Origin: Sphingomonadales bacterium 39-57-19
Lineage (GTDB): Bacteria; Pseudomonadota; Alphaproteobacteria; Sphingomonadales; Sphingomonadaceae
Direction of reading: 5' to 3'
Assembly (NCBI GenBank): GCA_002282385.1
Contig: NCJG01000004.1
Location: forward strand, 12,254-76,253
Length of the DNA: 64,000 nucleotides
Part shown: positions 4,279-7,908 of the stretch, in pieces
How the letters are laid out: the number at the start of each line of letters is the position of its first letter
Position numbering within the stretch: position 1 is the stretch's first letter
Program-made: the position numbers and the translations under genes
The notes under the pieces: model-generated
The model's database searches: none
What the model saw: only the letters and a program-made list of their open reading frames with translations
What the model was told of the DNA's origin: nothing

Positions 4279-5019
4279 CTATGCATTTTGCGCCCATATA
4301 AGAAATTCGATATTGCCTTGCGGCCCTGTAATTGGGCTGGTGGTCAAACCGCGTATCGTCCAGTTTTTTTCGACCAACCACTGCTGTACCTCGTTGCAAA
4401 CGCGTTCATGGACTTCAGGGTCCCGCACGACGCCGCCTTTGCCAACTTCTTCGCGGCCAGCCTCAAACTGTGGTTTGATAAGGGCGATCAATTGCGCGCC
4501 GCTTTTGGCAAAGGTCAAAGGCCGCTCAAGCACTTTGGCGAGGCCTATGAAGCTTGCGTCACAAACGATAAGATCAACGGGCTCGGTAATATGCACGTCG
4601 GTCAATATGCGCGCGCTTGTCTGTTCATGAACCACAACGCGGGGGTGTTGCCGCAGTTTCCACGCAAGCTGGTTCGTGCCGCTATCGACGGCGAAAACGC
4701 GCGTTGCCCCTTGCGTCAGCATAACGTCGGTAAAGCCGCCGGTTGAGGAACCCACATCAATGGCCACCATGCCGGTTACATCGATGGCAAATTCATCAAG
4801 GGCATGGGCAAGCTTAATGCCGCCGCGCGACACCCACGGATGATCGCTGCCCTTCACACTGATTTCGGTATCTTCGGCGATTTGCTGCCCTGGCTTTAGT
4901 GCCTTGGCATCACCGATATAGACATGGCCCGCCATGACCAATGCCTGCGCGCGCGTCTTGCTTTCGGCAAGGCCGCGATCAACGATCAATTGGTCTAGTC
5001 GTGTTTTTTTGGTCGCCAT
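4279..5019 (-). CDS. tlyA: TlyA-family rRNA 2'-O-methyltransferase
   Basis: S4 domain (RLDQLIVDRGL), WVSRGGIKL, IDVGSSTGGFTD, CDASFI and LIKPQFE. Start placed at ATG 5019 (MATKK), not the 5406 ORF start. Confidence 0.93.
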   Translation of the reverse strand: MATKKTRLDQLIVDRGLAESKTRAQALVMAGHVYIGDAKALKPGQQIAEDTEISVKGSDHPWVSRGGIKLAHALDEFAIDVTGMVAIDVGSSTGGFTDVMLTQGATRVFAVDSGTNQLAWKLRQHPRVVVHEQTSARILTDVHITEPVDLIVCDASFIGLAKVLERPLTFAKSGAQLIALIKPQFEAGREEVGKGGVVRDPEVHERVCNEVQQWLVEKNWTIRGLTTSPITGPQGNIEFLIWAQNA

Positions 5020-5068: not shown

Positions 5069-5599
5069 ATGCAAACCCGTAACCTGACCCTGATTGCAAT
5101 GTTGCTGCTCGCATCCTGCGTTGCGCCGCCGCCACCGCCAGCGCAGAGGGCAGCGCCCGTGCCGCCACCGGTGGCCGCCACGCCTGCGCCAACGCCGCGT
5201 CTGTCGGCGGATTGGAATGACTGGCCGTTTGCCGTGGGTGATTGGTTGTATCGGCGCGATGATCGCGGATCAATTGCTGTATTTGGACCGACTGACCAAA
5301 ATGCAGTCGTCAGCCTGCGCTGCGACCTGCAAAATCGGCGCATATATGTGTCGCGTGAAGCGACTGCACCGGGGCAACGCATTGTCATACGGACATCTTC
5401 GTCCATGAAGGAATTTGTCGCAAAGCCGACCGGCGGAACGCCCGGCTATCTGGCCAGTGAAATCATGCCGATGGACGCGATATTGGATGCGATGGCGTTT
5501 AGCCGCGGGCGGATATTATTGGAAACGGACGGGCATCCGCCCATCATTTTGCCCGCATGGGCAGAGATAGCACGCATTGTCGAAGATTGCCGCAATTAG
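5069..5599 (+). CDS. Hypothetical lipoprotein with Pro-rich linker
   Basis: Lipobox LLASC, Pro/Ala-rich tether, then a globular domain with a Cys pair (LRCD...EDCR). Confidence 0.75.
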   Translation: MQTRNLTLIAMLLLASCVAPPPPPAQRAAPVPPPVAATPAPTPRLSADWNDWPFAVGDWLYRRDDRGSIAVFGPTDQNAVVSLRCDLQNRRIYVSREATAPGQRIVIRTSSSMKEFVAKPTGGTPGYLASEIMPMDAILDAMAFSRGRILLETDGHPPIILPAWAEIARIVEDCRN

Positions 5600-5749
5600 C
5601 CTTTTGACGATGTCAAATATTGCGGCGCGGAACCCCAATATTTGCCCGAAAAATAATTTAATACAAGACTTGTTTACGTCACCCCTTTGATTCAACTTCA
5701 GTCCTGCGGAGGGCAGATATATGTTTGAAGCAAGCAATTTCCATTCAAC

Positions 5750-5764
5750 GAAAGGAGGTGATCC
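5750..5764 (+). promoter_or_regulatory. Extended Shine-Dalgarno, 15-nt perfect complement of the 16S rRNA 3' end
   Basis: GAAAGGAGGTGATCC is the reverse complement of GGAUCACCUCCUUUC. The GGAGG core is 7 nt from ATG 5766. Confidence 0.85.
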
Positions 5765-5765
5765 G

Positions 5766-5825
5766 ATGTCTCATGGTTCAGTTAAGAGGTCGGGGAATTC
5801 CGTTCGGGAGATCGGCCGCCGATGA
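5766..5825 (+). CDS. Candidate small protein, 19 aa (MSHGSVKRSGNSVREIGRR)
   Basis: ATG at optimal spacing from a maximal SD, TGA at 5823-5825, and an intrinsic terminator downstream. Below the ORF-track cutoff; translation not proven. Confidence 0.55.
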   Translation: MSHGSVKRSGNSVREIGRR

Positions 5826-5895
5826 TATCGGCGATGCCGGTCACGGCATGAAAGCAACTTCCGGCAGCGGCACATCCGACCGCTGACCCATGTTT

Positions 5896-5927
5896 AAGGG
5901 CCGTTGGATCATTCCAGCGGCCCTTTT
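5896..5927 (+). terminator. Intrinsic terminator
   Basis: AAGGGCCGTTGGA-TCAT-TCCAGCGGCCCTT (13 bp, one G-U) followed by a T-run. Confidence 0.85.
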
Positions 5928-6033
5928 CTGTTTCGCTGGTCTTATCAGCGCGCAACATCTTTTTGTCGAACAATAGTGGCAAATGACGTTCGAATGCTTA
6001 CATCAGAACAAAGATCAAAAGGGGCATCACATT

Positions 6034-7908
6034 ATGCAGTTTCTGCGCGTCAGCTGGAAAATATTGGTCGGGTTTAAGGACCTGCTGGTGCTCTTTTTCC
6101 TGTTATTGTTCTTCCTCGCGATATTCGCGCTTCTGAACGCCAGCCCCAATCCGGCGGTCGTGCGCGATGGTGCATTGTTGCTGAAACTTGATGGCGTTAT
6201 TTCCGAACAGCCTGCAGAAGTTGACCCGCTGACAGCGCTCACATCCTCAGCCATGCCAACCGGTGAAATCCGGCAACGCGACGTCGTTCGCGCGCTAAAG
6301 CTCGCGGAAAAAGATACGCGGGTGAAATTGGTCGTTGTCGACATGGAACGGTTCATGGGCGGCGGACAGGCGAGCCTTGCGGCAATCGGCAACAGCCTTG
6401 AGGCGGTGAAAAAGGCGGGCAAGCCAGTCTATGCCTTCGCCACGGCCTATTCGGACGACAGCTATCAACTGGCGGCCCATGCCACGCAAATCTGGATGGA
6501 CCCGTTGGGCGGCGCCATGATAACCGGACCCGGCGGATCACAGCCATATTATAAAGGCTTGCTCGACCAGCTTGGGGTGAAAGCCAACATCTACCGTGTC
6601 GGTACCTTCAAGAGCGCCGTTGAACCTTATATGCGGACCGAGCAATCGCCTGAATCCAAAATGGCCATCAAGGGCGTGTATGATGAGGTCTGGAGCCAGT
6701 GGAAAGCGGGCGTAGCAAAGGCGCGCCCTCAGGCGCAGCTGGACCGCATGTTGACCGACCCGGCCGGTGCGGTGGAGTCTGTTAAAGGTGATCTGGCGCA
6801 ATTGGCGCTGTCGTCGCGTCTGGTCGACAAGCTGGGTGACCGTATCGCATTCGGCAAATTCATCGCCGGCAAGGTTGGCGCGGATGACAAGAAAACGACT
6901 GGCGGTTTTGCCCACACACCGATGGACGCGTTACTTGCGAGCTACGGTCCAGCAACCGCGGGTGCACAGATTGGCGTCGTGACCATTGCGGGTACGATCG
7001 TCGATGGAGAGGGTGGTCCCGGAACCGCAGCGGGCGACACCGTCAGCGGTCTTATTTATGATGCGCTCGACAATAAGGATTTGAAAGCGTTGGTGGTCCG
7101 CGTGGATTCGCCGGGCGGTTCGGTCACAGCGTCTGAAAAAATCCGTCTGGCGATTGAAGCGGCGAAGGCGAAAAAGATTCCGGTCATCGTTTCGATGGCG
7201 AATTTGGCTGCAAGCGGCGGTTATTGGATATCGCTTCCTGCCGATGTCATCTTTGCCGATCCCGCCACGATTACCGGATCCATTGGTATCTTCGGTGTCA
7301 TTCCAAGCGCGGAGGCTGGGCTTGCGAAAATCGGCGTGAATGCCGACGGCGTGAAGACGACGCCATTGTCCGGCGAACCGGATATCTTGAATGGGTTCAG
7401 CCCCGAATTTGACCGCGTGGCCCAAAGCGCCATTGAGAATGGCTATCGTCAGTTCCTGACCCGCGTAGCCACGGCGCGCAAGAAAACGCCCGAACAAGTC
7501 GATGCTATCGCACAGGGGCGTGTATGGGCGGGTGGTACGGCCCGTCAGCTCGGCCTTGTCGACAGGACCGGTGGTATGAATGATGCGTTTGCGGAAGCGG
7601 CAAAGCGTGCCGGATTGAAACCCGATGGATGGCATGCCGAATATATTGAACCACCAACGAGCTTCGCAGACACGCTCATCAGTGGCCTGATGCCAAAGCG
7701 GGCGCAGGCTACAGCGCCGATGGATATTTTTGCGCAAGCATCATGGCAGCAGCAGTTGCTGTTCCAACGGATTTCGGCAGATTTGGATATGCTCACGGGC
7801 GTGCGTGGCGCGCAGGCCAAATGTCTTGAATGCGTGGATTTTGGCGCACCCGCGACGGCAAAGGCCGATACCGGTTGGTTCGCGATGTTGGTGAAGGCTT
7901 TAAGCTAA
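6034..7908 (+). CDS. sppA: Signal peptide peptidase SppA (protease IV, 67K type)
   Basis: N-terminal TM, two S49 domains; motifs GTFKSAVEPY, RVDSPGGS, AASGGYWIS and TITGSIG. Start at ATG 6034. Confidence 0.95.
   Translation: MQFLRVSWKILVGFKDLLVLFFLLLFFLAIFALLNASPNPAVVRDGALLLKLDGVISEQPAEVDPLTALTSSAMPTGEIRQRDVVRALKLAEKDTRVKLVVVDMERFMGGGQASLAAIGNSLEAVKKAGKPVYAFATAYSDDSYQLAAHATQIWMDPLGGAMITGPGGSQPYYKGLLDQLGVKANIYRVGTFKSAVEPYMRTEQSPESKMAIKGVYDEVWSQWKAGVAKARPQAQLDRMLTDPAGAVESVKGDLAQLALSSRLVDKLGDRIAFGKFIAGKVGADDKKTTGGFAHTPMDALLASYGPATAGAQIGVVTIAGTIVDGEGGPGTAAGDTVSGLIYDALDNKDLKALVVRVDSPGGSVTASEKIRLAIEAAKAKKIPVIVSMANLAASGGYWISLPADVIFADPATITGSIGIFGVIPSAEAGLAKIGVNADGVKTTPLSGEPDILNGFSPEFDRVAQSAIENGYRQFLTRVATARKKTPEQVDAIAQGRVWAGGTARQLGLVDRTGGMNDAFAEAAKRAGLKPDGWHAEYIEPPTSFADTLISGLMPKRAQATAPMDIFAQASWQQQLLFQRISADLDMLTGVRGAQAKCLECVDFGAPATAKADTGWFAMLVKALS

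Follow-up and report, generated by a model that had tools for sequence, protein, structure and literature searches.

Why should a frame of only 19 codons be preceded by a sequence complementary to the entire free 3' tail of 16S rRNA? The question is raised by a short element upstream of sppA in a 64,000-nucleotide (nt) stretch of contig NCJG01000004.1 of Sphingomonadales bacterium 39-57-19, which we place in a Sphingorhabdus-like genus from the Sphingorhabdus names given to homologues of a neighboring protein; we refer to this whole stretch as the window and to the predicted transcript of the element as the window RNA. The original prediction, made from the sequence alone, regarded the element as the best candidate for an undescribed system. 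Our analysis indicates that it is a real, conserved RNA gene and not an undescribed system: it very probably belongs, as a divergent copy from a sphingomonad, to the already published rre/CC2171 family of small mRNAs, which display a ribosome-binding site (RBS) of extreme length ahead of a very short open reading frame (ORF).

Anatomy of the element and pairing with the 16S tail

The 15-mer GAAAGGAGGTGATCC at positions 5750 to 5764 of the plus strand is the only match of its kind in the window, even when two mismatches are allowed (0.09 in shuffles). The assembly holding the window contains no rRNA operon and no 16S or 23S genes, though it is rated 99.99% complete, and the 16S 3' end used here is accordingly that of a complete genome belonging to the same genus (...CUGGAUCACCUCCUUUCU, also written ...CCUGCGGCUGGAUCACCUCCUUUCU), so that statements about the organism's own anti-Shine-Dalgarno (anti-SD) sequence rest on this congener. 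Against the congener tail, the leader forms 15 Watson-Crick pairs and one G-U pair, which bears out the unusually long Shine-Dalgarno (SD) sequence that had been claimed, and the predicted duplex reaches -30.1 kcal/mol, compared with -9.3 and -4.1 kcal/mol for the SD sequences of two neighboring genes. The ATG (5766 to 5768) stands one G past the 15-mer and 7 nt from its GGAGG, in keeping with the good spacing originally described, and opens the frame MSHGSVKRSGNSVREIGRR, which ends with TGA at 5823 to 5825.

The hairpin said to cover the stop codon is real (CGCCGAT at 5817 to 5823 and ATCGGCG at 5827 to 5833, with the TGA inside), and so is the strong terminator, with no other site of this kind in the region from 5300 to 6300. 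A second proposed hairpin, CAGCGG/CCGCTG, did not hold, as it falls outside the conserved fold and its bases belong to the 3' strands of the long-range helices that we call P3, P2, and P1. An Rfam match covers 5742 to 5924; the element spans 5742 to 5929 and, in the genus of the window, probably about 5704 to 5929, with a predicted RNA length of some 190 to 225 nt (Table 1).

Table 1. Features of the rre/CC2171-like element in the window, in order of position
Feature	Positions	Strand	Remarks
Palindrome ACAAGACTTGT with -35-like CTTGTT	5663..5675	+	Kept throughout the genus alignment; also precedes the RNA in many sphingomonad genera
TTGATTCAACT, conserved TGAyTCA block, -10-like element	5687..5697	+	16 to 18 nt past CTTG; fixed spacing across genera
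SD1, ordinary Shine-Dalgarno GGAGGG	5708..5713	+	Genus specific; 25/25 members, 7 to 8 nt ahead of the upstream ATG
AUG1 (5721 to 5723) with 15-codon extension	5721..5765	+	34-codon frame 5721 to 5825 (MFEASNFHSTKGGDPMSHGS...); reads through the long SD
SD2, complementary to the free 16S rRNA tail	5750..5764	+	15 nt, plus G-U at 5765; no change in genus or sphingomonad relatives
Short frame: AUG2, 19 codons, UGA	5766..5825	+	From the ORF list
P1 5' strand CAUGGUUCAGU	5772..5782	+	Pairs with 5882 to 5892; 95.8% of cells paired; closes the whole folded domain
P2 5' strand GGUCGGG	5788..5794	+	Pairs with 5875 to 5881 (UCCGACC); 99% of cells paired; one-sided changes only (G-C to G-U)
P3 5' strand CCGU-CGGGAG (SD look-alike)	5800..5810	+	Pairs with 5858 to 5870, which holds CUUCC
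Two apical hairpins	5817..5849	+	First 5817 to 5833, over the stop codon; second 5834 to 5849; variable between genera
P1 3' strand GCUGACCCAUG	5882..5892	+	Together with the P1 5' strand, corresponds to the outer Rfam helix
Intrinsic terminator	5896..5929	+	13-bp G+C-rich stem (5896 to 5925), 4-nt loop, UUUU; found in all relatives

Family membership and RNA fold

The Rfam match just mentioned is to RF01867, "caulobacter sRNA CC2171", and covers the model over its full length (model positions 1 to 159; E value, 3.3e-8; 45.5 bits); other Rfam families gave merely weak, chance-level matches in the window scan (ncS01, flg-Rhizobiales, and c4-a1b1). The single-stranded 5' consensus of the model, cAAcaAucGAAAGGAGGUGAUCC-N-RUG-UCUCAU, is aligned with CAUUCAACGAAAGGAGGUGAUCCGAUGUCUCAU at posterior probability "*", and the outer helix and the terminator align as well, whereas the interior does so at low posterior probability. 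As in RF01867, a long-range helix (P1) opens just past the start codon and closes ahead of the terminator. The RNA CC2171 came from a small RNA (sRNA) screen in Caulobacter crescentus, where it was seen on Northern blots, and it was validated by Northern blotting in Methylorubrum (bioRxiv 10.1101/2022.01.24.477521).

The second published relative is rreB of Bradyrhizobium, a stand-alone mRNA of 165 nt in which 17 nt are complementary to the 16S 3' end and precede a 14-codon ORF (Hahn et al. 2017, RNA Biol 14:1353, PMC5711450). The complementary stretch ends on the initial G of the GUG start codon. rreB was found in the ribosomal pellet and cosediments with 30S subunits, an association that requires the 5' extension of its SD; it is translated weakly, and changing GUG to UAG lengthened its half-life from 10 to 37 min (Hahn et al. 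2017). Analogues were reported from Caulobacterales, Rhizobiales, Rhodobacterales (rreR, 18 codons), and Rhodospirillales, with a function called elusive; Sphingomonadales and Rfam go unmentioned in that paper, and a literature search for later work on the rreB and rreR RNAs found none.

The window RNA resembles these rre mRNAs, which are about 165 to 200 nt long, in being a putative stand-alone unit with the core GAAAGGAGGUGAUCC complementary to the free 16S tail; its SD2 is identical to the core of the 17-nt region of rreB. The fixed distance from this core to the start codon is the same, the ORF is likewise very short (14 to 18 codons in rre RNAs, 19 in the window RNA, and 18 in most sphingomonads), and the unit has a folded body and closes with an intrinsic terminator. 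The likeness to RF01867 lies in the 5' consensus CAACAAnCGAAAGGAGGUGAUCC-N-RUG-UCUCAU, the outer helix that closes the domain, and the terminator. From their identical motif and anatomy, we infer that rre and CC2171 are one family. The window RNA differs from the published rre mRNAs in its interior fold and in the extra in-frame RBS that its genus carries upstream; it differs from RF01867 in that the interior hairpins align poorly and in that Rfam lists a noncoding sRNA, whereas the frame of the window RNA is clearly maintained.

The element is widely conserved. A search with the CC2171 model detected one copy in the source genome, matches in 24 of 25 genomes of the same genus, and matches in 54 of 301 genomes drawn evenly from the class (8 of them exceeding the curated cutoff), and a scan of named genomes gave at least 120 loci. 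Among the matches listed were Sphingomonas, Sphingobium, Novosphingobium, relatives of Erythrobacter, Caulobacter, Brevundimonas, Methylobacterium, Bosea, and Acetobacteraceae. Of 201 genomes sampled in the order, 83 hold the exact motif GAAAGGAGGTGRTCCNRTGTC, each as a single copy; every one of these belongs to the GTDB family of the window (which supplied about 107 of those sampled), and a reversed control pattern occurred in none. A Rhizobiales-type rre copy was also present in a metagenome-assembled genome (MAG) labeled Hydrogenophaga intermedia (Betaproteobacteria; locus L137), for which misbinning or transfer outside the class is possible.

The fold is conserved along with the leader. 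The window RNA has a single-sequence fold z-score of -4.9, and its bases 8 to 39 are invariant in the genus, in which the flanking proteins are merely 35 to 60% identical. In an alignment of 26 sphingomonad copies from different genera, 92.7% of the cells of P1 to P3 are paired, compared with 28 to 45% for slid partners. In P3, six of the eight pairs carry compensatory changes; 39 cells are changed on both sides, versus 16.8 +/- 3.4 under shuffling, and none of 500 shuffles scores as high. P1 and P2 show no covariation within the genus or the sphingomonads, their strands being invariant. In other orders, we found more than 10 complementary versions of P1, such as CAUUGUCA/UGACAAUG, GUGGGAAUU/AAUCUCAC, and CCCUUGG/CUAGGGG, as read from single-sequence folds in which P1 was present in 89 of 136 minimum-energy structures. 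The helices P1 to P3 are thus supported by comparative pairing data. The RNAalifold consensus of the genus alignment paired the SD with the 3' arm and U-tail of the terminator instead; the much greater stability of the terminator hairpin led us to discount this pairing as an artifact of the poor alignment of the terminator.

P3 also joins an internal SD look-alike, GGGAG (5806 to 5810), to an anti-SD look-alike, CUUCC (5857 to 5861), which reads CCUCC in some relatives. The anti-SD look-alike could instead pair with the long SD at a predicted -17.5 kcal/mol (versus -30.1 kcal/mol for the 16S tail), and this alternative pairing hints at a possible switch.

Several observations weigh against the family assignment and against a docking role modeled on rreB. 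The RF01867 match lies below the gathering score of 75 bits, as do all matches from the same genus. The complementary stretch of the window RNA comprises 15 nt and a G-U pair, whereas those of rreB and rreR comprise 16 to 17 nt and the search of Hahn et al. required at least 16; further, the window RNA starts with an AUG that lies outside the duplex, in contrast to the GUG of the rre mRNAs. The sphingomonad interior consists of nested helices P1, P2, and P3 with a variable apex, whereas the interior of the RF01867 model consists of four separate hairpins. In the free RNA, predicted base pairing involves about half of the long SD. Finally, 20-fold overexpression of rreB was without effect on growth (Hahn et al. 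2017), which makes simple ribosome titration unlikely as the function. Even so, we hold with good confidence to an explanation of the rre type, in which the RNA docks on the 30S subunit through its leader.

Short frame, second start site, and gene neighborhood

Whether the short frame encodes a functional peptide was put as a choice between conserved codons and a conserved SD and structure, and in the comparison SD, fold, and frame are conserved, and the amino acids are not. Among 170 distinct relatives, the frame beginning at the conserved RUG is 15 to 30 codons long in 167, compared with 33 and 48 for the two shifted frames, which otherwise stop very early or never. Sphingomonad copies have exactly 18 codons in 73 of 87 cases, with UAA, UGA, or UAG as codon 19, and in the two genus members with UGG as codon 19 that were checked (L018 and L019), a stop follows directly. 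As length and stop are kept while the shifted frames scatter, the frame itself is under selection.

The peptide sequence tells otherwise. For codons 6 to 18 of 58 distinct 18-codon copies, the ratio of nonsynonymous to synonymous substitution rates (dN/dS) was 1.24 in frame and 0.83 and 0.80 in the shifted frames, although these values come from 13 codons, nonindependent sequence pairs, and near-saturated substitutions, which counts against leaning on them heavily; third codon positions were not the most variable in this segment. The residues that are invariant in sphingomonads (M-S-H-G-S and Ser9) overlap the SD-proximal motif and the helices P1 and P2, and peptides from different orders have M-S alone in common. 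On these sequence comparisons, we favor the view that translation of the frame matters rather than its peptide product. The microprotein gene of the original prediction is borne out in start, length, and stop and weakened on the protein side, where dN/dS (about 1.2) is no lower than in the shifted frames.

In the genus of the window, a second, ordinary SD with an ATG (SD1 and AUG1) lies upstream. It was compared in 25 copies, of which 22 came from the searched genomes and three were MAGs from a named collection. AUG1 is invariant and in frame with AUG2, at a distance of 45 nt (42 nt in the divergent copy L020, which has a 3-nt deletion and GGAGGT as its SD1). The resulting 34-codon frame crosses the docking site as ...K-G-G-D-P-M-S-H..., and GGUGAUCC can be passed without a UGA only in frame 0 and one other frame. 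Outside the genus, upstream SD-ATG combinations occurred at chance level (two in-frame and two out-of-frame cases), and the exact 34- and 33-amino-acid products of the upstream start were absent from a collection of 15 billion proteins. On balance, we lean toward AUG1 being used; ribosomes that start there would then act at the docking site.

A block consisting of ACAAGnCTTG, a spacer of 12 to 13 nt, and TGAyTCAca (5663 to 5697) precedes the RNA in many sphingomonad genera. Judging from this sequence, we take 5663 to 5697 as a putative promoter, from which transcription would start around 5703 to 5706, a few bases before SD1. A regulon search with the palindrome ACAAGnCTTGT gave a single occurrence of the 11-mer in the 2.3-Mb genome, and its 8-base core occurred at chance frequency. 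The layout of rre promoters (CTTG-N17/18-CCATAT or CTCACAT) resembles that of the dnaK, groES, hslV, and clpB promoters of the same genome. Alphaproteobacterial sigma-70 promoters look much alike, however, and the -10 element of the window copy (TCAACT) fits poorly, so that the layout does not separate sigma-32 from sigma-70.

Directly upstream of the RNA lies a lipoprotein gene (5069 to 5599, plus strand; lipobox LLASC) without a Pfam or NCBIfam family, whose product is listed in databases as a hypothetical protein. The gene has this position and orientation at about 50 of 58 sphingomonad loci drawn from many genera, and the interval before the RNA generally lacks a terminator-like hairpin; the gene may be cotranscribed with or functionally linked to the RNA. 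A gene for a TlyA-family rRNA (cytidine-2'-O)-methyltransferase (4279 to 5019, minus strand; TIGR00478; E value, 5e-71) lies two genes from the RNA, an adjacency seen in the genus only. The gene downstream, in the same orientation, is sppA across the genus and there only; at no fewer than 50 other sphingomonad loci, other genes follow the RNA.

Proposed docking, rival explanations, and significance

In the explanation that we prefer, an RNA of about 190 to 225 nt would present, near its 5' end, a sequence that pairs with the entire 16S tail, so that a 30S subunit would be docked far more tightly than by an ordinary mRNA. P1 would gate initiation, as loading the RNA into the mRNA channel would need the folded domain to be opened: P1 begins 6 nt past AUG2, within the stretch that the 30S subunit must keep single stranded, and this position would account for poor translation in spite of tight 30S binding. 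The 5' strands of P1, P2, and P3 all lie within the short frame, whose stop falls in the apical region, and translation of the frame or its occupancy by ribosomes would be what is functional, for example, in ribosome release or RNA turnover. In the genus of the window, the upstream RBS 45 nt away would probably drive elongating ribosomes through the docking site. By analogy with rreB, the window RNA may share 30S binding, weak translation, and decay that depends on the start codon; we infer its transcription as drawn, and any physiological role, from the genomic evidence. The two faces between which the original prediction hesitated, an mRNA with a micro-ORF and an RNA that captures 30S subunits, have both been demonstrated in experiments on the homologous rreB (Hahn et al. 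2017).

Each of these two faces can also be taken by itself. If the RNA were a purely noncoding 30S decoy or sponge, the frame would be an unused accident of an SD followed by an AUG; the extreme potential for pairing with the 16S tail, the conserved RNA fold, and the occurrence of rreB on 30S subunits while barely translated (Hahn et al. 2017) fit this account. It explains neither why the frame keeps its length and its stop when the other two frames scatter nor why a stop immediately follows where codon 19 has become UGG; an added in-frame start makes little sense for an untranslated RNA, and in rreB the start codon sets the RNA half-life and overexpression did not slow growth (Hahn et al. 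2017). We therefore consider a pure decoy unlikely. The converse account, in which a basic peptide of 19 (or 34) amino acids is the product and the long SD merely expresses it, can point to a frame that opens and closes at near-constant length in nearly all relatives and to residues that sphingomonads keep without change; in addition, the RreB and RreR peptides are conserved within clades, and an RreB-EGFP fusion protein is produced (Hahn et al. 2017). However, the dN/dS values speak against selection on the peptide, the invariant codons coincide with nucleic acid motifs, and almost nothing of the peptide is shared between orders; moreover, RreB and RreR lacked structure when made synthetically, and growth did not respond to a construct from which higher RreB levels were expected (Hahn et al. 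2017). A microprotein gene is, in our judgment, rather improbable.

A third account reads the locus as a leader-peptide attenuator of sppA, as the layout of promoter, short ORF, structures, terminator, and gene, with sppA on the same strand throughout the genus, would allow. The window RNA does resemble leader peptides and upstream ORFs (trpL-type attenuators) in combining a conserved start, length, and stop with an unconstrained peptide sequence and in that a translating ribosome would remodel the RNA structure. Unlike them, it has no conserved, controlled downstream gene and no codon bias for a sensed amino acid, and its SD is many times stronger than that of any leader. That sppA lies downstream in this genus only argues against attenuation of sppA, the context is not conserved in other orders, no conserved antiterminator was found, and in Caulobacter, Bradyrhizobium, and Methylorubrum the family has been observed as a small RNA of its own; we regard this account as very unlikely. 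Over-long SD sequences are known on some type I toxin mRNAs, a comparison drawn in the original prediction, and the window RNA shares with the standby sites and over-long RBSs of such mRNAs an unusual ribosome-binding arrangement together with mRNA structure that limits initiation. The comparison goes no further, as the peptide is basic and hydrophilic rather than hydrophobic, its sequence is not conserved, and the family has the distribution of a housekeeping-like, single-copy, stand-alone RNA; no antisense partner appeared in the ORF list or the Rfam scan, beyond which no search was aimed at antisense elements. A relic of a 16S rRNA gene on the minus strand is suggested by the sequence of that strand, GGATCACCTCCTTTC, which equals the 16S 3' end, but the flanks show no match to 16S. 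The initial assessment that a chance match is very unlikely is well founded, given that element, fold, and terminator are conserved in more than 170 genomes. Chance, relic, and toxin mRNA together are extremely improbable, and this conservation refutes them.

Within the docking explanation, we put forward a more specific proposal, as yet tentative and less likely to be right than the docking explanation that contains it, that the frame is "translated but not coding": start, 18-codon length, and stop would be selected, and a single round of translation would unzip P1 to P3 and so release or destroy the RNA docked on the 30S subunit. On this proposal, the AUG1 RBS would be a built-in clearing device that arose in the Sphingorhabdus-like genus.

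Few small RNAs of Alphaproteobacteria are as conserved as those of the rre/CC2171 family, whose mode of ribosome binding is unlike that of any ordinary mRNA. The comparison presented here extends the family to the sphingomonads, which were not listed in the original paper and whose copies, as scored here, fall under the Rfam cutoff, and it narrows the options for the role of these RNAs, since selection preserves the length of the frame and the fold of the RNA and not the sequence of the peptide. It further provides two handles for experiments, namely, a genus with a second in-frame start and a lipoprotein gene that neighbors the RNA across the sphingomonads. If the frame is indeed translated but not coding, the genus would offer a natural test of what happens when an elongating ribosome meets a parked 30S subunit or a maximal internal SD (15 to 16 bp of SD-anti-SD pairing), and a possible link to the adjacent lipoprotein gene would be testable in the same strains as the docking question.

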